From assembly GCA_031553685.1 (NCBI GenBank), contig JAVBLE010000033.1, positions 1 through 43,412 of the forward strand: DNA of 43,412 nt, read 5' to 3'. This stretch comes from Paludibacteraceae bacterium (GTDB lineage Bacteria; Bacteroidota; Bacteroidia; Bacteroidales; Paludibacteraceae). Of the stretch, positions 1,820 through 41,972 are shown one piece after another; within the stretch, counting starts at the first letter, position 1, and each line of letters starts with the position of its first letter. The notes under the pieces are model-generated. The model saw only the letters and a list, made by a program, of their open reading frames with translations. It ran no database searches and was not told the DNA's origin. The position numbers were made by a program, and so were the translations under genes.

Positions 1820-2395
1820 ATGTCATATAATTCTAAAACACATAATCGCCGTAGCATTCGGTTGAAGGATTATGATTATTCGCAGGCAGGCTTGTATTTT
1901 GTAACTATTTGTGTACATAACAGGGAATGTTTGTTTGGTGAAATTGCTGATGGACACATAAGCTTGTCGAATATTGGCACTATTGCTGATTTATTATGGT
2001 TTGAAATAAAAAATCATGCGCCTAATGTGGAATTGTGCGAATTTGTTGTGATGCCAAATCATATTCATGGGATTATTGAGATAAAAGACTTACCGTCCGT
2101 AGGGGCGTTGCATGCAACGCCCCTACATGCAACGCATCCACAACCGGACGAACCCTGCAAGCAGAAAAATGAATATATGGCAGCTATTTCGCCCAAAGCA
2201 GGTACACTGTCAACAATTATTCGTTCGTACAAATCGGCGGTATCAAGGCACGCTCATCGTTTAGGTTACATATTTGCATGGCAACGCAGCTTTCACGAAC
2301 ACATTATTCGAGATAATAATGACCATGCGCGTATTGCCGAATATATCAAAAACAATCCTGACATGTGGACAGATGATTGTTTTTACAAAGAATAA
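1820..2395 (+). CDS. REP-associated tyrosine transposase (RAYT, IS200/IS605-like Y1 HUH transposase)
   Basis: HUH motif HIHGII, catalytic Tyr region SYKSAVS, WQRSFHEHIIRD and YIKNNP tail. REP palindromes lie just upstream (1769) and downstream (2441). A full REP copy also lies inside the ORF at 2097-2139, translated as VGALHATPLHATH. Confidence 0.75.
   Translation: MSYNSKTHNRRSIRLKDYDYSQAGLYFVTICVHNRECLFGEIADGHISLSNIGTIADLLWFEIKNHAPNVELCEFVVMPNHIHGIIEIKDLPSVGALHATPLHATHPQPDEPCKQKNEYMAAISPKAGTLSTIIRSYKSAVSRHAHRLGYIFAWQRSFHEHIIRDNNDHARIAEYIKNNPDMWTDDCFYKE
2097..2139. repeat. REP element copy 2 (core plus ATGCAACGC extension), located inside the RAYT coding sequence in-frame
   Basis: ccgtaggggcgttgcatgcaacgcccctacatgcaacgcatcc; the ORF stays open across it. 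Confidence 0.8.
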
Positions 2396-4994: not shown

Positions 4995-5113
4995 TTGGGC
5001 GCGTCCCCGCCGCGTGCCCATTTTGGATGCGTAGGGGTAGACCTATGTGTCTGCCCGGTCGTTAAACCATTCGTACACAGGGTCGGGGTCGGGCTGTCCG
5101 CTATACTCCTCGC
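4995..5113. repeat. GC-rich repeat family 2, copy A (TTGGGCGCGTCCCC...CCCATTTTGGA...CGGGGTCGGGCTGTCCGCTATACTCCTCGC)
   Basis: Shares a 30-bp core with 21318-21349 and 39926-39956, and a 5' module with 39876-39915. It lies directly upstream of the minus-strand LRR gene start. Confidence 0.6.
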
Positions 5114-5250
5114 TCGCATCCCTATCCGGTTCGTAGAGCCGTGGCGCGCCGCGGCTCTACCACATCCCTATCCGGTTCGCTGCGGGGTGCCGCTCCCATC
5201 CCTCGCGCATCCGCCCTGCGGGACGGGTTGGCGCACCGTCCGTTATCCTA

Positions 5251-5294
5251 CCGTAGTAGGAGCGTTGCATGCAACGCCCCTACAATGCATCTCC
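5251..5294. repeat. REP element copy 4 (slightly diverged: CCGTAGTAGGAGCGTTGCATGCAACGCCCCTACAATGCATCTCC)
   Basis: Read directly; embedded in the GC-rich structured island 4980-5425. Confidence 0.75.
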
Positions 5295-5424
5295 GTACCC
5301 CGTATTATTCACCGCTACTCCTCGTTTCCCAGCGAGGAGTCCATGGCTTTGTGTTTCAAAACACCTTACCAAATCCCCCCTCGCTCGAAAGTGAAGGGGG
5401 AAACGAAGAGCGACAAGCGCTTAA

Positions 5425-6830: not shown

Positions 6831-7259
6831 TTAGGGCAAACGCACGAAATTTGCCCTAAAGTAAAAAACAGTCAGGGCTTCACTTTGAGTGAATCCCTGA
6901 CTTATCAAGAAATTACGGTTTATTCTCGGTGTTTTATGGTCTCGGATTTTCCGAATAGGAAAAACCTTGTTGTTTTTTGTTTTCGGAAATTCCGAACGGG
7001 CAAAACCTTGCACTTTTATAGTTTCGGAAATTCCGAACGGGCAAAAGCTTGTGTTTTTATCCTCTCGGTATTTCCGAATGAGCAAATACTCTCGCTTTTA
7101 TGCCTTCGGAATTTCCGAATGAATAAAAGCTCGGTGTTTTACGCTTCCGGAATTTCCGGATGGATTTTTACTGCTTATTTTGGCTTTTCGGAATTTCTTT
7201 TTATTGTCGGAGTAAAACTCCTTTTGAGTAAATTAGCAAATTTCGTGCGTTTGCCCTAA
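6831..7259. repeat. Composite element: 24-bp terminal inverted repeats (TTAGGGCAAACGCACGAAATTTGC) enclosing a terminator-like hairpin and seven tandem repeats of about 41 bp, each with a TTCGGAAATTCCGAA-type palindrome
   Basis: 6831-6854 is the reverse complement of 7236-7259. The array is at 6934-7222 (units start TTTTA..., end ...AAAACCTTG). Unit 6 has the compensatory variant TCCGGAATTTCCGGA. Confidence 0.6.
6871..6901. repeat. Hairpin GTCAGGGCTTCACTTTGAGTGAATCCCTGAC (second copy in opposite orientation at 41710-41740)
   Basis: 12-bp stem; flanked by an A/T run. On the minus strand it reads hairpin then TGTTTTTT. Confidence 0.5.
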
Positions 7260-7367
7260 ATGAAAATACAACACACCCATTAATTCGGAATTAATCGTTA
7301 ATTTTGTTCCTCAAAATAAATAATTCCGATTGTAAATTGTAAATCATAAAATAGTAAATACACCCCC

Positions 7368-11671: not shown

Positions 11672-12022
11672 CCAAACAAAAATTTTCCAAAACTACCAAT
11701 TTTTTCCACTAAATTTGCAAACATTTTTTACCTGTTATGCATTTAGACTTTATTTGAATGTATTAAAATGATGAATTTCTATTTTTTTGGACAGAATTTA
11801 CAAAATTAACAGATAAATTTTGCCAAAGGCAAAATAAAAAACATGTAAATTCTGTTAATCCTGTCAAAAAATAAAGCTTTATTCAAAAATAATCCGCAAA
11901 TGCACAACAAGTATTTTTTCTAAATTATTTTGCAATGGTTCAGATGTTTTTGTTGTAAATAAGAAATCGTTTACTTCGTGTTAAATCTGTAAATTGTAAA
12001 TCCGTAAATTGTAAATTCATAT

Positions 12023-14689
12023 ATGATGACAGCTAAAGAAATTCGCAAATCATTCCTCGATTTTTTCGCTTCGAAAGGGCATCACATCGTGCCATCCGCA
12101 CCGATGGTGGTAAAGAATGACCCTACGCTGATGTTTACCAACGCCGGCATGAACCAATTTAAAGACCTGTTTTTGGGCAATGCGCCTATTAAATATCCAC
12201 GCGTTGCCGACTCGCAAAAATGCCTCCGGGTAAGCGGCAAGCACAACGACCTGGAGGAAGTGGGACACGATACTTACCACCACACCATGTTCGAAATGTT
12301 GGGCAACTGGTCGTTTGGCGATTATTTCAAAGAAGAAGCCATTGCGTGGGCGTGGGAATATTTGACCGAAGTGCTCAAATTAGACAAAAGCCGTCTGTAT
12401 GCCACGATATTTGAAGGCGATGCCAAAGAAAATTTGGCAAAAGATGAAGAAGCTGCCGGACTTTGGGCAAAATACCTTCCTGCCGACCGCATCATCAACG
12501 GGAATAAAAAAGATAACTTCTGGGAAATGGGTGATACGGGACCTTGCGGACCATGTACCGAAATCCATATCGACTTGCGCTCGGACGAAGAACGCGCCCA
12601 AAAACCCGGTGTGGAACTGGTAAACAACGACCACCCGCAAGTAGTGGAAATCTGGAACAATGTATTTATGCAGTTCAACCGCAAAGCCGATGGCTCGCTC
12701 GAATTGCTCCCTGCCAAACATGTGGATACCGGCATGGGCTTTGAGCGCCTTTGTATGGCTGTGCAAGGTAAACAATCGAACTACGACACGGATGTTTTCC
12801 AACCGATTATTAGGGAAATAGAGAAAATAACAGGCTATCAGTATAGTCATTCTGACGAAAGTCAGAATCCCCTTCACCAAGAGGGGATTGCGGGTCGAGC
12901 CCGCAATGATGCCCAAGAGCAGGTCGATATTGCCATGCGTGTGATTGCCGATCATATCCGCACCATAGCTTTCTCAATTACCGACGGGCAGCTGCCGTCG
13001 AATGCCAAAGCGGGGTATGTTATCCGCCGTATTTTGCGCCGCGCGGTGCGTTATGGGTATACATTCTTGGGTCAACACCATGCTTTTATGTATAAGTTAA
13101 TCCCGGCTTTGATAGACAGTATGGGTGAAGCTTATCCCGAACTTCCGGCACAAAAAACATTGGTCGAAAAAGTGATCAAAGAAGAAGAAGAATCTTTCCT
13201 TCGTACGCTCGAAACCGGAATTCGATTATTAGATAAAAATCTCCCAAAAGATGGCAAAATATTAAGTGGTGAAATAGCATTTCAATTGTACGACACTTTC
13301 GGTTTTCCTTTGGATTTGACCGAACTTATTTTGCGCGAAAACGGCATGACTGTGAATGTGGATGAGTTTAATGTGGAGATGCAAAAGCAAAAAGAACGCG
13401 CCCGCAACGCTGCTGCTGTGGAAACCGGCGACTGGATATCTGTACGCGAGGGTGAAACTCAATTTGTGGGTTATGATATGTTGGATTGTGAAGTGGAGAT
13501 CCTGCGTTACCGCAAGGTGAAGCAAAAGAACGAAGAATTGTTTCAGTTGGTGTTTGACAAAACGCCTTTTTATGGAGAAATGGGAGGACAAAGCGGTGAT
13601 TGCGGCACATTGGAATCGGACAACGAAACCATCCAAATTATTGATACCAAGAAAGAAAACGGACTAAGTATTCATATTTGCAAAAATCTCCCTAAAGATA
13701 TTACGGCTACTTTTTATGCCGAAGTAGATTTGGCGCACCGGCGCGCGGTGGAAAACAACCACACGGCTACGCACCTTTTGCATGAAGCGTTGCGCGAAGT
13801 GCTGGGCAAGCATGTGGAACAAAAGGGTTCGCTGGTAACTGCCGATTATTTGCGTTTCGACTTCGCTCATTTCCAAAAGGTAAGTGCCGAAGAACTTCGT
13901 GCGGTAGAGCGATTGGCGAACAAAAAGATACGCGAAAACCAAATCCGCGAAGAACTGCGTGAACTGCCGATTGAAGAGGCGCAACGAATGGGAGCGATGG
14001 CTCTGTTTGGCGAAAAGTACGGCGAAAAGGTGCGTGTGGTAAGATATGGTACTTCGATCGAACTTTGCGGGGGTACGCATGTGGGTGCCACCGGACAAAT
14101 CGGCTTGGTAATCGTCACTGCCGAATCGTCTATTGCAGCCGGTGTGCGCCGTATTGAGGCAATCACTGCTGAAAAAGCCGAAGCATTCGTCGAAGCGCAA
14201 CAGGACTTGCTTCGTGATGCCAAAGAACTGTTTAACAATGCGCCGAATGTGATTTCTTCCATTAAAAAAATGGTGGACGAAAATGCTGATTTAAAGAAAA
14301 AGGTCGAAGGGTTTGTGCAGGAACATATTGCTAATATTGCCAATCATTTGTCTGCACGAACTGAAAATGTGAAGGGAATTACTGTTGTCCGTCACCGGAT
14401 GGAGGCTTCGAACGATGTGGTGCGGGGTGTTGCTACACAGTTGCGCGCGAAGTTTGCCGACGAGAAATTCTTACTTGTTTTAGGTACGGAGTTTGAGGGC
14501 AAACCGTCTCTTACGGTTGCTTTGAGCCAACCGTTGGTGGATGCGGGACTGAATGCCAACACAATTATCCACGAGGCGGCTAAAGAAATTGAAGGCAACG
14601 GCGGCGGACAAGCTTTTATGGCAACTGCCGGCGGAAAAAACCCGGCTGGTATTGACCGCGCTATGAATAAGGCAGTGGAAATGATTTAG
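12023..14689 (+). CDS. alaS: Alanine--tRNA ligase
   Basis: Full-length 888 aa with conserved class II motifs: [22 protein letters not shown], the editing-domain HxxxH/CGGTHV, and the C-terminal DHHA1 GGGGG. Confidence 0.95.
12846..12912. repeat. Roughly 66-bp triple-hairpin element inserted in-frame inside alaS (encodes [22 protein letters not shown])
   Basis: Hairpins ATTCTGACGAAAGTCAGAAT, CCCCTTCACCAAGAGGGG and ATTGCGGGTCGAGCCCGCAAT. A second, reverse-oriented copy is at 37549-37610. Confidence 0.55.
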
Positions 14690-21274: not shown

Positions 21275-21349
21275 AGTCGGGGCGTTCCTCCTCCTGCTGC
21301 GTGTGTACTAATAACAGCGGGGTCGGGCTGTCCGTTATACTGCTCCCTC
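21275..21349. repeat. GC-rich repeat family 2, copy B (CGGGGTCGGGCTGTCCGTTATACTGCTCCCTC)
   Basis: Core shared with 5084-5113 and 39926-39956. Confidence 0.55.
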
Positions 21350-36710: not shown

Positions 36711-37478
36711 ATGGAAAATGAGAAAATGGTGTTGCGCACCGAAAACCTGGTGAAATCTTACGGCAAAAGAACCGTTGTAAGCCATGTATCTATCGATGTA
36801 AAACAAGGAGAAATTGTAGGATTGCTCGGTCCGAACGGCGCCGGCAAAACCACTACTTTTTATATGACCGTTGGGCTGGTTACACCCGAAGAAGGAAAAA
36901 TATTTTTGGATGAAAAAGATATCACCAAATATCCCGTTTACAAGCGTGCACAAAGCGGCATTGGATACTTGGCACAAGAAGCTTCGGTTTTTCGTAAAAT
37001 GAGTGTGGAAGATAATATCAAAGCCGTACTCGAAATGACTAAATTCAGCAAAGAGTATCAACGCGAAAAATTGGAACTGCTTATTGAAGAATTTCGCTTA
37101 GATCATGTACGCAAAAACTTGGGAGACCAGTTGTCGGGAGGAGAGCGCCGCCGTACCGAGATAGCCCGTTGCTTAGCCATTGAACCCAAGTTTATCATGC
37201 TTGATGAGCCGTTTGCGGGAGTTGACCCGATTGCGGTACAAGACATCCAGGATATTGTGTGGCAATTAAAAGAAAAAAACATCGGTATCCTCATTACCGA
37301 CCACAATGTGGACGAAACACTTTCGATTACCGACCGCGCATATCTTCTTTTCGAAGGAAAAGTATTGTTTCAAGGCTCTGCCGAAGAATTGGCAGCAAAC
37401 CAAGTTGTGCGCGAAAAATATCTCGGTCGCGATTTTGAACTGAAACGCAAAAGACAAGCCAGTGAATTGACAATTTGA
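36711..37478 (+). CDS. lptB: LPS export ABC transporter ATP-binding protein LptB
   Basis: Walker [10 protein letters not shown], signature LSGGERRR, Walker [11 protein letters not shown]. Confidence 0.88.
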
Positions 37479-37548
37479 CAATTTACCAATTGACAATTTT
37501 GTCTTTTGAATTGACATTGTTAAATTAATATAGTTTTATAGTTGTTGT

Positions 37549-37610
37549 CATTGCGGGATTGACCCGCAATCCCCCACTGATAGAGAGATGCTGAATCAAG
37601 TTCAGCATGA
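37549..37610. repeat. Second copy (reverse orientation) of the hairpin element found inside alaS
   Basis: CATTGCGGGATTGACCCGCAATC ... ATGCTGAATCAAGTTCAGCAT; its reverse complement aligns base-for-base with 12846-12912 around GGGGATTGCGGGTCNANCCCGCAATGA. Confidence 0.5.
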
Positions 37611-37695
37611 CGAGAAACGAGAAAATCTATACTAAATTAACAGTACCTTTGAATTAAATAGTAAATAGTCAATCGTTCAATTGTAAATAAAGAAG

Positions 37696-38397
37696 ATGTT
37701 GGTTAAAATATCAGATATCAACCTATACTATCAAATAAGCGGTTCCGGAGAGCCGCTTATTTTGCTTCATGGCAATGGTGAAGACTCGTTTATCTTTGAA
37801 AAACAGATTGAATATTTTTCAAAGAAATATCAGGTAATAGCCATTGACACCCGTGCTCATGGGCAAACGGAACGAGGCGCTAAACCCTTCACTTTCGATA
37901 CCTTTGCCGACGATGTAATTGGCTTAATGGATTCGTTGCAAATAGAAAAAGCCCATATATTAGGCTTTTCGGATGGAGGAAACACAGCGTTGCATATTGC
38001 GTTGAAATATCCGCAGCGGATAAAGTCGCTTATCCTTGTTGGCGCCAATCTTTTCCTGTCAGGAATGAAATTCACAATTCGAACAATTATTTCACTCAAT
38101 TACCTTTGGCTTTGCGTTAGTTCACTTTTCAATCAAGAAATAAAACAAAAGAAAGAAATTTGGTCACTCATGGTTTTTCAACCACAACTCTCGTTTCGGC
38201 AAATATCAGCCATACAAAATCCCACCTTAATTTTAGTTGGTGAGCACGATATGATAAAAGAAAGCCACAGCCGGAAAATGGCTGCGGCAATGCCCAATGC
38301 TCAACTCCAAATCTTGTCTGATGCGAATCATTTTTTACTGTTCGAGCAGACAGAAAGGGCGAATGGATTGATTGATAATTTTTTGTGTTTGCAGTAG
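37696..38397 (+). CDS. Alpha/beta hydrolase fold protein
   Basis: LILLHGNGEDSF, nucleophile elbow GFSDGG, and a C-terminal His region. Confidence 0.72.
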   Translation: MLVKISDINLYYQISGSGEPLILLHGNGEDSFIFEKQIEYFSKKYQVIAIDTRAHGQTERGAKPFTFDTFADDVIGLMDSLQIEKAHILGFSDGGNTALHIALKYPQRIKSLILVGANLFLSGMKFTIRTIISLNYLWLCVSSLFNQEIKQKKEIWSLMVFQPQLSFRQISAIQNPTLILVGEHDMIKESHSRKMAAAMPNAQLQILSDANHFLLFEQTERANGLIDNFLCLQ

Positions 38398-39875: not shown

Positions 39876-39956
39876 TTGGGCGTGCCCCCTCAAAGCCCTA
39901 TTTTGGAAAACATACCAATACAGCTCGGGGTCGGGCTATCCGCTGTACTCCTCGCC
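39876..39956. repeat. GC-rich repeat family 2, copy C
   Basis: TTGGGCGTGCCCCC...CCCTATTTTGGA...CGGGGTCGGGCTATCCGCTGTACTCCTCGCC; upstream of the minus-strand PhoH gene. Confidence 0.55.
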
Positions 39957-40054
39957 ACCTACAATTCTTATCACACAAAGGGAAGCAAAACCGTAGTTAG
40001 CCCCTCTCCTGTGGAGAGGGGTTGGGGAGAGGTGGCTGCGGGATGTCGCTACAA

Positions 40055-40183
40055 TAGCGAAGCATCACGAACACCAAAAATAATTATCTGTGAGTAATAG
40101 CGAAGCATCACGAACACCAAAAATAATTATCTGTGAGTAATAGCGAAGCATCACGAACACCAAAAATAATTATCTGTGAGTAA
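40055..40183. repeat. Perfect 3 x 43-bp tandem repeat (TAGCGAAGCATCACGAACACCAAAAATAATTATCTGTGAGTAA)
   Basis: Read directly; units at 40055, 40098 and 40141. Confidence 0.9.
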
Positions 40184-40400
40184 TCCCTCACGCAACGCGG
40201 ATAACCGGCAGTTATCCCGTTGAAGAACAGGTGCAGCGCACCGTAATATAAGTGTGTCGGTACTCTGTACCTCAATTTCTTATGCTGATATAATAGCTAC
40301 AAAGATTGCGGTGCTCTGCACCTGAATGACAAACAATAAAACAACTTTAAATAAAATCACTCCCTTTAACCAAAAACGGGGAGGGGTTAATTAAAACAAC

Positions 40401-41669: not shown

Positions 41670-41709
41670 AGAGTTTTTGGTGTTTTACCGGTAATGAAAA
41701 AAATGCTAA

Positions 41710-41740
41710 GTCAGGGCTTCACTCAAAGTGAAGCCCTGAC
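41710..41740 (+). terminator. Hairpin GTCAGGGCTTCACTCAAAGTGAAGCCCTGAC after folC (copy of 6871-6901 in opposite orientation)
   Basis: 12-bp perfect stem, followed by TGTTTAAAAAAAA, which is not a canonical T-run. Confidence 0.45.
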
Positions 41741-41972
41741 TGTTTAAAAAAAACTGTTTTAATTTTATTGATAATTAATAAATATTTTTTACATTTGCGC
41801 ACATTAATTAAGTATTCAAAATATTGAAGCACGCCACACATATTATCTCTTTACCTTGTGTTTTTAACTAAAATAACTTGCACGCTTCACAATCTCTTTA
41901 AACTATACACTTATAAATCTCACAGCATTTTTTATTTGTAAAATTTTAATAACAATTTAAATTATATTCAAA

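Follow-up and report, generated by a model that had tools for sequence, protein, structure and literature searches.

Is the hairpin-rich segment inside alaS a mobile element that entered a conserved gene in frame, and if so, to which kind of element does it belong? The window, by which we mean the whole 43,412-nt stretch analyzed here, carries alaS (alanine--tRNA ligase, 888 codons in the open reading frame listing) at 12023-14689 on the plus strand, and this gene holds the insertion. Its product has the Pfam domain tRNA-synt_2c (651 bits) along with tRNA_SAD and DHHA1, and in alignments with the catalytic fragments of human and bacterial AlaRS it reached 1e-125 to 1e-132. A comparison of filled and empty sites placed the insertion, 66 nt made up of two unlike hairpin modules (a heterodimer), at 12845-12910 on the plus strand. 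The first-pass annotation had described an in-frame element of about 66 bp; length and frame were both borne out, but the span lies one base earlier than was given. The insert takes the place of a single Gly codon and lengthens the gene by a net 63 nt, or 21 amino acids, and an orthologue (P0002) reads GHQY-G-AQEQV at the site, so that the gap in relatives is 21 residues and not the 22 that had been expected. At the DNA level the site is unfilled in two loci (L121 and L138), and both flanks of the insert are colinear with the orthologues. More than 100 related AlaS proteins, including the two nearest (~86% identical over conserved columns), are without the segment. As judged from these alignments, the insertion postdates the split from the nearest sampled relatives, and the open frame suggests that the 21 extra residues are translated.

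We considered whether the segment could be an assembly or chimera artefact, since the assembly is a draft in which contigs may be wrongly joined at repeats, or whether it could be a mini-intein, an intron or another spliced element. The insert is exact and in frame with colinear flanks, however, and an independent assembly (L122), whose AlaS is 68% identical, carries an element of the same type at this very codon boundary. Both of these independent insertion events occurred at 5′-TAY|G. Additionally, 66 nt is far below the size of inteins or group I/II introns, and Rfam gave no meaningful match, either at the gathering threshold on the whole window or at an E-value threshold on the two copies described below. 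An origin of either sort is extremely improbable.

The insert follows a conserved Tyr codon in a short loop of variable length where the tRNA-recognition domain starts, a loop whose length also differs in human AlaRS. An AF2 model of mediocre quality (mean pLDDT 69.5) places residues 278-294 in a coil with pLDDT under 50, flanked by helices 260-270 and 289-320, in line with the surface loop that had been anticipated. At least five independent insertions have entered this loop across lineages, and it accommodates between 9 and 43 extra residues. Its contents vary among lineages, even inside one clade of 94-99% identity.

The alaS copy had been read as three consecutive hairpins. The sequences are as described, but they form two modules, and the middle stem (CCCC-N10-GGGG, 12869-12886) is the pairing of the two conserved module tails. 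The left module, at 12845-12872 on the plus strand by hairpin reading and folding, consists of a tag, AGTC (12845-12848), a stem, ATTCTGAC (12849-12856), a GAAA loop (12857-12860), the opposite stem arm, GTCAGAAT (12861-12868), and a CCCC tail (12869-12872). A 10-nt spacer, TTCACCAAGA (12873-12882), leads to the right module, which lies on the minus strand at 12883-12911 with tag CATC, stem ATTGCGGG, loop CTCGA, stem CCCGCAAT and tail CCCC, and which reads ATTGCGGG-TCGAG-CCCGCAAT on the plus strand at 12887-12907. The left tag departs from the usual C/T-GTC, and the right module departs from the family consensus at one loop base and one tag base. Among the copies listed, the alaS copy is the sole case with both tags (AGTC and CATC) off-consensus, and it may now be beyond recognition. 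The left-module core GTCATTCTGACGAAAGTCAGAATCCCC, which omits the first tag base, recurs in another locus (L062), where that base is C instead of the A in the window. Folding of 12840-12915 as RNA gave -33.9 kcal/mol (z = -5.9, equaled by 0 of 200 shuffles), and as single-stranded DNA the two strands gave -18.8 and -18.4 kcal/mol (z of about -5.6).

The window also contains the second copy that the first-pass annotation had placed between lptB and a hydrolase gene. We found this intergenic heterodimer at 37546-37612 on the minus strand, built on the same plan as the alaS copy; its reverse complement reads CGTC-ATGCTGAA-CTTGA-TTCAGCAT-CTCT, a spacer and GGGGG-ATTGCGGG-TCAAT-CCCGCAAT-GACA, and both of its tags (CGTC and TGTC) are canonical. 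Upstream lies lptB (36711-37478, plus strand; NCBIfam TIGR04406 LPS_export_lptB, 367.6 bits against a cut-off of 240) and downstream an alpha/beta hydrolase gene (37696-38397, plus strand; Pfam Abhydrolase_1, 1.6e-31). The window contains two occurrences of the core ATTGCGGG-N5-CCCGCAAT, where 0.2 would be expected by chance.

Beyond the window, a longer form of the core recurred in at least 120 stretches from other genomes, mainly of termite-gut Bacteroidales, which yielded 144 exact copies. These loci were gathered by an exact 22-base core, so that the counts apply to well-conserved copies in those genomes that the scan reached; many of the source genomes are MAGs. Inverted dimers of 61-102 nt accounted for 57 of the 144 copies listed and single modules for 87. 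Dimer spacers vary, with recurring spacer subfamilies and several length subfamilies that have conserved internal sequence, and in 27 of the 57 dimers listed the partner stem is unlike the TTGCGGG stem of the core, making them heterodimers. Across the loci collected, GTCA followed by a hairpin and a CCC tail occurred 221 times, compared with 0-2 times for five control tetramers. In 54 dimers the base before GTCAT was C in 30, T in 23 and A in 1, and a CCTC tag variant appeared in 3 copies among the matches listed. Full-text literature searches returned no paper with the module DNA or its four peptide translations, and searches on palindromic elements in Bacteroidetes or Symbiothrix found nothing relevant. 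When the four module peptides were joined as a 44-aa synthetic query, a set of 5.8 billion proteins gave 10 candidates among the matches listed.

To determine if the stems are maintained by pairing, we used a query of flanks and loop only; a covariation count on alignment A3 was dropped because its sequences had been preselected for pairing, which made the count circular. Stems with 2-5 changes on both arms still paired in 7 of 7 cases. We conclude that tag, tail and loop are conserved while the stems shift by compensated substitutions. This result bears on whether the family could be a classical MITE, that is, an IS shortened by deletion and moved as dsDNA by a DDE transposase recognizing 28-nt terminal inverted repeats. 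Such an element would be short and non-autonomous with inverted ends, it could account for length subfamilies with conserved internal sequence, and the lack of a transposase linked to the element is what a MITE would show: when ORFs of 100 aa or more from 120 loci were clustered all against all, no recurrent neighbor emerged. Compensatory stem changes, however, would not be selected by a dsDNA-binding transposase, and single modules are no rarer than dimers (87 and 57 among the copies listed). Target-site duplication, sought at 1-5 nt, was missing in all 54 dimers, none of which had any direct flank identity, and it was absent also from the alaS empty/filled pairs; the dimer flanks were pyrimidine/purine in 53 of 54. 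We therefore regard a classical MITE as highly unlikely.

About a quarter of the listed copies (35 of 144) lie within long open reading frames of real genes, in a stop-free frame with at least 60 codons on each side, and the host proteins had Pfam domains in 7 of 7 cases tested. These copies weigh on another explanation, in which the alaS segment is no passenger but a selected, functional extension of AlaRS or an alaS-specific cis-regulatory RNA structure. In its favor, pairing in the stems remains perfect and the frame is open, several lineages have this loop enlarged, and strong mRNA hairpins could slow ribosomes. Against this, unrelated genes by the dozen as well as intergenic DNA carry the same sequence, the nearest relatives do without the segment, the loop contents differ even among close relatives, and no Rfam family matched. 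Selection for a role in alaS is thus very unlikely, and a dispersed repeat carried as a passenger is the reading that we pursue here.

We next asked which enzyme such a repeat could depend on. The window holds an ORF resembling a RAYT (REP-associated tyrosine transposase) at 1820-2395 (NCBIfam REP_Tyr_transpos, 2e-16), which contains the motifs NHIH and YIKNNP and weakly matches E. coli TnpA-REP (4er8), so the elements could be REPINs or BIME-like REPs mobilized by this protein. Homologous RAYTs are present in 3 of 120 loci, and a tagged hairpin that inserts without duplication is also compatible with HUH enzymes. A different repeat, GTAGGGGCGTTGCATGCAACGCCCCTAC, however, flanks the RAYT of the window and also breaks into it in frame, and the CGTC modules adjoin none of the RAYTs seen. 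The literature likewise reports no transposase association for CGTC REPs (PMC3733652, Table 1), and the modules instead bracket a GIY-YIG gene. We rejected the RAYT as the mobilizing enzyme because the palindrome flanking it is GTAG-tagged, whereas the modules carry (C/T)GTC, and we consider mobilization by it quite improbable.

The GIY-YIG gene was located by phmmer, using as probe an E. coli YhbQ sequence; a strict GIY-YIG regular expression gave 0 matches. Modules were present on both sides of the gene in 7 of 7 loci from related genomes (L040, L082, L131, L133, L134, L135 and L136), with the upstream copies of L134 and L135 being degenerate (tags CATC and AGTC) and read from the upstream sequence by eye, not by the module scan. 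The left-type module of alaS also flanks GIY-YIG gene arrays in L082 and L135. The product is a single-domain protein of ~110 aa (Pfam GIY-YIG, 62 bits). A module overlaps the 3′ end of the gene, such that 77 of the 120 best homologues end in a module-encoded peptide at residue ~111. In L040 the gene carries a frameshift, and of the L040/L082 pair only one gives an ORF of at least 100 aa, which is not enough loci for the ORF clustering above to show a recurrent neighbor. No Ssn-like GIY-YIG gene was found within the 43-kb window, and its presence in this genome is accordingly a presumption.

The published Ssn nuclease binds its hairpin as ssDNA only and cuts a few bases upstream, and its gene, a single-domain GIY-YIG gene of cd10448 type, is arranged as NTS-ssnA-NTS (Chenal et al. 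2025, Nat Commun 16:2388; PMC11893778). Since the modules that bracket the GIY-YIG gene match this arrangement, we infer Ssn-type recognition of the modules, by an enzyme that would be encoded elsewhere in the genome. By analogy, the Bacteroidales GIY-YIG homologue is a candidate to bind and cut ssDNA carrying CGTCATTGCGGGCTTGACCCGCAATCCCC. The published SRM pattern, HGTCWYN(0-2)YYVSBRHN(0-5)WNVSBRGN(0-2)RNCYNB, was matched by 0 of the 4 window modules and was not matched by the TTGCGGG consensus, because the stem sequences differ; the TTCCCGC-GAAG variant did match, and the pattern had 19 matches in 795 kb of loci. The pattern was built by hand from 29 genomes (PMC11893778), and the mismatch therefore weakens the assignment to SRM as defined, not the proposal that the modules work like SRM.

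Taking these lines jointly, we think it very probable that alaS 12845-12910 is a non-autonomous dispersed repeat, a heterodimer of the CGTC-REP/SRM kind that is carried as a tolerated passenger and would be recognized by an Ssn-type enzyme. The element would have entered alaS at codon phase 0, and with 66 nt and no stop in that frame it would leave alaS open and be read as 21 extra residues, in a putatively disordered surface loop where it would be tolerated instead of serving as an AlaRS adaptation. A further joint reading, in which the Ssn-type GIY-YIG nuclease itself spreads the modules by single-strand transposition, with horizontal cross-phylum spread in the termite gut, is speculative and in our view rather unlikely; in the literature, a role of that enzyme in copying or moving the modules is put forward as a hypothesis and is not established. 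If this further reading were true, the alaS junctions (no duplication, a start at the tag, 5′-TAY|G twice) would be footprints of a GIY-YIG nuclease, and a quarter of the insertions of the family would seed new peptide loops.

The two-module architecture, the likely Ssn-type GIY-YIG partner and the recurrent use of the AlaS loop had been overlooked by the first-pass annotation. The findings show that it is common for gut Bacteroidales to carry selfish hairpin repeats inside essential genes, which is thus not peculiar to Rickettsia, and they link such intragenic repeats to the Ssn ssDNA-nuclease system, described only recently. A tolerant AlaRS loop could be of use for engineering tags into AlaRS and offers insight into protein length variation made by repeats. 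The published SRM search pattern overlooks a large Bacteroidales branch of the family.

Several known systems invite comparison. Rickettsia palindromic elements, reportedly described by Ogata and colleagues in 2000 and 2002, are said to lie in frame in conserved and even essential genes, where they are tolerated as extra peptide. The alaS insert is likewise palindromic, in frame in a conserved gene and absent from orthologues. With ~100-150 bp the classic RPE-1 is the longer element and has a sequence unrelated to the modules, and Rickettsia are Alphaproteobacteria, whereas the hosts here are Bacteroidales. At the peptide level, GTCATTCCCGCGAAGGCGGGAATC, which is the sequence of a module variant in the loci analyzed, can encode VIPAKAGI of R. 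conorii; the tie to RPE-4 and RPE-6 is through this peptide and a published CGTC assignment.

REPIN-RAYT systems and BIMEs resemble the modules in several ways: their hairpins carry a 4-nt tag, they come as single units and as inverted doublets, they leave the target unduplicated, and their partner gene lies between copies of its own repeat. Their tag is GTAG and their partner a Y1 HUH transposase, however, and a separate system of this type, with a different repeat, occupies 1771-2470 of the window. The Neisseria NTS/dRS3 repeat is, like the modules, a 28-nt oriented hairpin repeat that starts with CGTCAT, and it differs from a co-occurring variant, CGTCATTCCCGCGAAGGCGGGAATCCCC, by 2 mismatches. 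The SsnA system has the same module-gene-module order around a single-domain GIY-YIG gene of ~100 aa, and the spacing of Y6, Y17 and E64 in SsnA equals that of Y8, Y19 and E66 in the GIY-YIG proteins of the related genomes. In-frame insertion into genes, as seen here, is not discussed in that work (PMC11893778).

By their anatomy the modules fit the CGTC REPs, families CGTC-1 to CGTC-4, reported from 5 phyla including Bacteroidetes (Di Nocera, De Gregorio & Rocco 2013, BMC Genomics 14:522; PMC3733652). These have an unpaired 4-nt tag, CGTC, with variants TGTC and CCTC; a stem of 8-9 bp with A-T and T-A at its first and second positions; a loop of 4 nt in family 1 and 5 nt in families 2-4; and an unpaired tail of ~3 nt with consensus CCA (PMC3733652). 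At the family level the modules carry CGTC or TGTC tags with the CCTC variant, stems of 8 bp starting from AT (ATTCTGAC/GTCAGAAT, ATTGCGGG/CCCGCAAT and ATGCTGAA/TTCAGCAT), and loops of 4 nt (GAAA) or 5 nt (TCGAG, CTTGA and ATTGA/TCAAT), with tails that are CCCC or CTCT in place of CCA; the left module resembles CGTC-1 by its 4-nt loop and the right module CGTC-2 by its 5-nt loop. Inverted dimers, often heterodimers, predominate among CGTC REPs with spacers of 10-100 nt, intragenic in-frame copies encode 20-30 aa, and transposase association is lacking (PMC3733652, Table 1). The modules agree in forming dimers and heterodimers (57 dimers in 144 copies) with no recurrent ORF of at least 100 aa beside them. 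The Bacteroidales/termite-gut hosts and the high intragenic share (35 of 144) seen here are not described for CGTC REPs in that study (PMC3733652). The superfamily includes Neisseria dRS3 and R. conorii RPE-4 and RPE-6 (PMC3733652), and the view of the alaS insert as an RPE-like mobile palindromic element is upheld in this sense. We conclude that the kind of element is itself not new and that its insertion in alaS is a fresh example of a known phenomenon.

The alaS gene, at 12023..14689 on the + strand in the ORF listing, encodes a full-length AlaRS (Pfam tRNA-synt_2c, 651 bits, plus tRNA_SAD and DHHA1). The element within it, at 12845-12910, reads A-GTC-ATTCTGAC-GAAA-GTCAGAAT-CCCC-TTCACCAAGA-GGGG-ATTGCGGG-TCGAG-CCCGCAAT-GAT and is a dimer of two inverted hairpin modules. 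RNA folding of the 76 nt around it gave -33.9 kcal/mol, far below shuffles (z = -5.9), and folding of the same 76 nt as ssDNA gave -18.8 and -18.4 kcal/mol for the two strands (z ~ -5.6). A second copy at 37546-37612 on the - strand, between lptB (TIGR04406, 367.6 bits) and an alpha/beta hydrolase gene, matches this plan when reverse-complemented. The first-pass annotation's hairpin-rich element in alaS, with a second copy in the lptB-hydrolase intergenic region, is therefore borne out by sequence, folding and plan. Its three consecutive hairpins are not, as the middle one arises where the CCCC tail of one module pairs with GGGG in its partner. An AT-rich TGTAAATTGTAAAT... motif, possibly a promoter or leader element, lies directly 5′ of the alaS start codon (11988-12019), upstream of the hydrolase start codon (37660-37691) and at a third site (7331-7362).

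The empty site became apparent once the 120 best AlaS homologues were aligned with MAFFT. Across conserved columns the nearest relatives, P0002 and P0003, share 86.6% and 85.8% identity with the window AlaS, and in place of its 28-residue stretch they have Y-G-AQEQV and Y-G-DNEKT. At the DNA level, the empty site in a related locus (L121) is CAGTAC-GGT-GCACAAGAG and the filled site in the window is CAGTAT-[AGTCAT...AATGAT]-GCCCAAGAG, such that one codon was replaced by 66 nt, a net gain of 63 nt and 21 amino acids, in frame. We conclude that the element inserted into alaS; the gap predicted for AlaS relatives is present, with a net size of 21 residues and not 22. A function of the segment specific to alaS is contradicted by the close relatives that do without it and by the occurrence of the element in unrelated genes. 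The peptides read from the copy are S-HSDESQNP in the left module, in the phase of (R/C)HCGLDPQSP, and GIAGRARND in the right. In a mediocre AF2 model of AlaS residues 1-470 (mean pLDDT 69.5), helices 260-270 and 289-320 flank the insert, which is coil and has residues 278-294 under pLDDT 50, consistent with the expected loop position. Loop length at this site also differs in human AlaRS, and we infer that AlaS carries the 21 extra residues as a translated segment, tolerated in a surface loop.

Extra segments of at least 6 amino acids occur in this one loop (reference residues 269-279) in 10 of the 120 best homologues, while internal insertions elsewhere in the same sequences number only three. 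Nearest-neighbour comparison indicates at least five independent events: the window, the homologues P0039, P0019 and P0025, and a 94-99%-identical clade (P0024, P0034, P0027 and P0044) with three different loop states. P0039, encoded at locus L122 and just 68% identical to the window AlaS, carries a 93-nt dimer of the window type in which the first 24 nt of the left module (GTCATTCTGACGAAAGTCAGAATC) are identical, and which begins right behind the same Tyr codon; its nearest relative, P0102 (L137), is without the dimer. An assembly artefact or a splicing element as the source of the alaS segment is contradicted by L122, which is an independent assembly, by the colinear flanks and by the small size of the element. 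The loop offers about seven permissive codon boundaries, so the shared position argues only weakly for target choice, and filtering by selection explains it as well. In other Bacteroidales, differing hairpin-rich inserts occupy the same loop at L123:501-3179, L124:501-3167, L122:2454-5177 and L137:301-2940. The element in L123 and L124 is another one, encoding SPLNPPQG(D/E)..., and a further loop insert is a CTCTCTCC-TGT-GGAGAGAG hairpin encoding SPVERAGRE. We consider this AlaRS hot-spot loop worth recording.

The search proposed in the annotation for copy number and intragenic share used the exact core GGGGATTGCGGG-N5-CCCGCAATGA and, in one genome per species, returned at least 120 stretches holding 144 copies. 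The listed copies came mainly from termite-gut Bacteroidales (Ca. Symbiothrix dinenymphae, single-cell 'Bacteroidia bacterium MS49x/PG1894', and Prevotellaceae and Dysgonomonadaceae MAGs), with a few from rumen or horse Bacteroidales. Aligned, they define a 28-nt module of (C/T)GTC, AT plus a 6-bp stem, a loop that is mostly CTTGA, the complementary stem plus AT, and a CCCC tail. Among the matches listed, 57 of 144 copies have an inverted second module upstream, forming dimers of 61-102 nt grouped in recurring spacer subfamilies, and the partner stem differs in 27 of the 57, making these heterodimers. GTCA followed by a hairpin and a CCC tail occurs 221 times in the collected loci, compared with 0-2 times for each of five control tetramers. 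When flanks and loop were specified and the stem was left free, stems with 2-5 changes from TTGCGGG had the other arm changed to match, with 7/7 pairing in nearly every case (for example TCCTGAA/TTCAGGA, TCCCCAA/TTGGGGA and the window's own TGCTGAA/TTCAGCA). These matched changes show that the hairpin itself is under constraint. The modules form a repeat family.

No direct repeat, even of 1 nt, was found at the ends of the 54 listed dimers examined, so the modules make no target duplication. This absence and the compensated stems contradict an origin as a DDE-type MITE. In 53 of 54 listed dimers the left flank is a pyrimidine and the right flank a purine, that is, the first base of the tag, the sole exception being the alaS copy. 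When the ORFs of 100 aa or longer in the 120 loci were all clustered, no neighbour gene recurred and no linked transposase emerged. The exact core also occurs on five IMG/VR contigs and on termite-gut contigs binned as Oscillospiraceae, Defluviitaleaceae, Chitinispirillales and Clostridia (the non-Bacteroidales-binned and IMG/VR loci being L006, L013, L025, L029, L034, L048, L051, L063, L069, L079, L084, L095, L100, L020, L022, L047, L058 and L126-L130), which points to either cross-phylum spread or mis-binning. At least the L079 contig looks truly Gram-positive, given its LPxTG-type pilin-like ORF (weak NCBIfam match).

In-frame survival is frequent: 35 of the 144 listed cores are read through by a stop-free frame that extends for at least 60 codons, often hundreds, on each side. 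The module is open in four of six reading frames, and the intragenic copies encode (R/C)HCGLDPQSP (18 of 35), GIAGQARND (11), VIAGLTRNP (5) or GLRVKPAMT (1). All seven host genes tested contain Pfam domains: a UvrD-type helicase with a PD-(D/E)XK nuclease domain, an M24 aminopeptidase, an ABC ATPase, a Methyltransf_4 (PF02390) methyltransferase domain followed by an SLT domain, GH43 plus GH16, an ABC-2 permease and a GDSL lipase. In several of these the domains span the element or flank it on both sides. In some ORFs it separates two domains normally found as individual proteins, and may thus bridge fused genes. Several loci have at least two separate insertions in one host gene, namely L001:4039-5019 (a putative sugar-kinase-like ORF of 326 aa), L066 (the UvrD-type helicase), L119 and L074 (the Methyltransf_4-plus-SLT ORF).

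The window also encodes a RAYT-like Y1 transposase (motifs NHIH ... YIKNNP) in a REPtron at 1771-2470 (ORF 1820..2395, +), whose NCBIfam REP_Tyr_transpos match (2e-16) is below the cut-off because the ORF is split. Mobilisation of the modules by this RAYT is unlikely, since it is flanked, and interrupted in frame, by a GTAG-tagged palindrome, GTAGGGGCGTTGCATGCAACGCCCCTAC, and not by the CGTC module. A further copy of that palindrome lies at 5256-5283, and the arrangement is that of TnpA-REP subclass 2.4 of Bacteroidetes and Cyanobacteria (PMC6006769). A third dispersed hairpin family within the 43 kb is a 42-nt perfect-stem palindrome, AGTCAGGGCTTCACTTTGAGTGAAGCCCTGACT, at 6866-6907 and 41704-41745 (copies 95% complementary). 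Other repeats are tandem arrays at 6925-7170 (six 41-nt units, each with a TTCGGAAATTCCGAA palindrome) and 40053-40184 (three identical 43-nt units), and a 31-nt dispersed repeat, TCGGGGTCGGGCTGTCCGCTATACTCCTCGC, at 5083-5113, 21317-21347 and 39925-39955 (87-94% identity).

In related genomes, although not in the window, the modules are physically linked to a GIY-YIG gene. With E. coli YhbQ as the query, a phmmer search of every ORF of 45 aa or more in the collected loci singled out L082 and L040. The L082 ORF (118 aa, Pfam GIY-YIG 62 bits) has CGTCATTGCGGGCTCGACCCGCAATCCCC 22 nt upstream of its ATG, a stop codon overlapped by GAGATTGCGGATCAAGTCCGCAATGACG and, behind it, an array of TTGCGGG and TTCTGGC-GAAA heterodimers of the type in the alaS insert; L040 has a frameshifted copy with the same flanks. 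Among the best 120 of its 5040 homologues (E <= 1e-5), 77 carry the module peptide (G/E)IAGQARND or GDCGSSPQ-stop at residue ~111, directly behind a conserved KEYY motif, and most of the others a degenerate form. At five of five loci, the DNA of three further homologues showed one module ~20 nt ahead of the gene and, at its 3′ end, another in inverted orientation; in L134 and L135 the upstream module is degenerate (tags CATC and AGTC), was missed by the module scan and was read from the printed sequence. With modules on both sides at every further locus, the association is strong. At least seven tandem TTCTGAC/TTGCGGG heterodimers (period ~112-115 nt) lie directly 3′ of the Ssn-like gene at L135:1868-2657 and L082 (reverse strand 5001-5360). 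At L131-L134 the Ssn-like gene (1501-1887, product P0131), found on at least 24 contigs, lies within a type I restriction-modification operon between a 405-431-aa ORF and HsdR, bracketed by its own modules.

The known counterpart is SsnA of Neisseria, a GIY-YIG nuclease of 94 aa consisting of a single domain. Copies of the 28-nt NTS (CGTCATTCCCGCGMAVGCGGGAATCYRG) lie on both sides of its gene, and the enzyme binds and cuts the NTS exclusively as ssDNA and in a single orientation (Chenal et al. 2025, PMC11893778). The same study reports thousands of homologues that have Ssn-related motifs (SRMs) of their own, and raises the hypothesis of Ssn as a mobilising enzyme, either domesticated or active. 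Y8, Y19 and E66 of the L082 protein are spaced like Y6, Y17 and E64 of SsnA. The published degenerate SRM pattern matches no window module, whereas the TTCCCGC variant fits it, at two mismatches from the NTS. By analogy we treat the alaS element as working like an SRM: an Ssn-type enzyme encoded in this genome would recognise the modules as ssDNA. The alaS copy would be partly decayed, because its tag bases are altered (ATC instead of GTC in the right module; A instead of C/T one base further out in the left) and SsnA cleavage rests mainly on three bases upstream of the palindrome (PMC11893778).

The alaS element is a repeat of an already known kind. CGTC REPs have a CGTC, TGTC or CCTC tag, stems of 8-9 bp from an initial AT, a loop of 4 nt (family 1) or 5 nt and a 3-nt tail, form inverted dimers in the majority, frequently heterodimers, encode 20-30 aa where intragenic and in frame, lack transposase association, and occur in five phyla including Bacteroidetes (Di Nocera et al. 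2013, PMC3733652). The window modules share each defining feature except the tail sequence, and we file the element as a member of this superfamily, in which R. conorii RPE-6 and RPE-4 and Neisseria dRS3 have also been placed (PMC3733652). With the empty and filled sites and the dispersed family, the original description of an RPE-like mobile palindromic element inserted in frame in alaS was right in substance. The Bacteroidales expansion of CGTC REP modules and the tie of intragenic repeats to an Ssn system also deserve recording. R. conorii peptides in the supplement of PMC3733652 include VIPAKAGI and ...RFRGND; compared at the peptide level, VIPAKAGI is encodable by GTCATTCCCGCGAAGGCGGGAATC, a module variant that is the dimer partner eight times in the collected loci.
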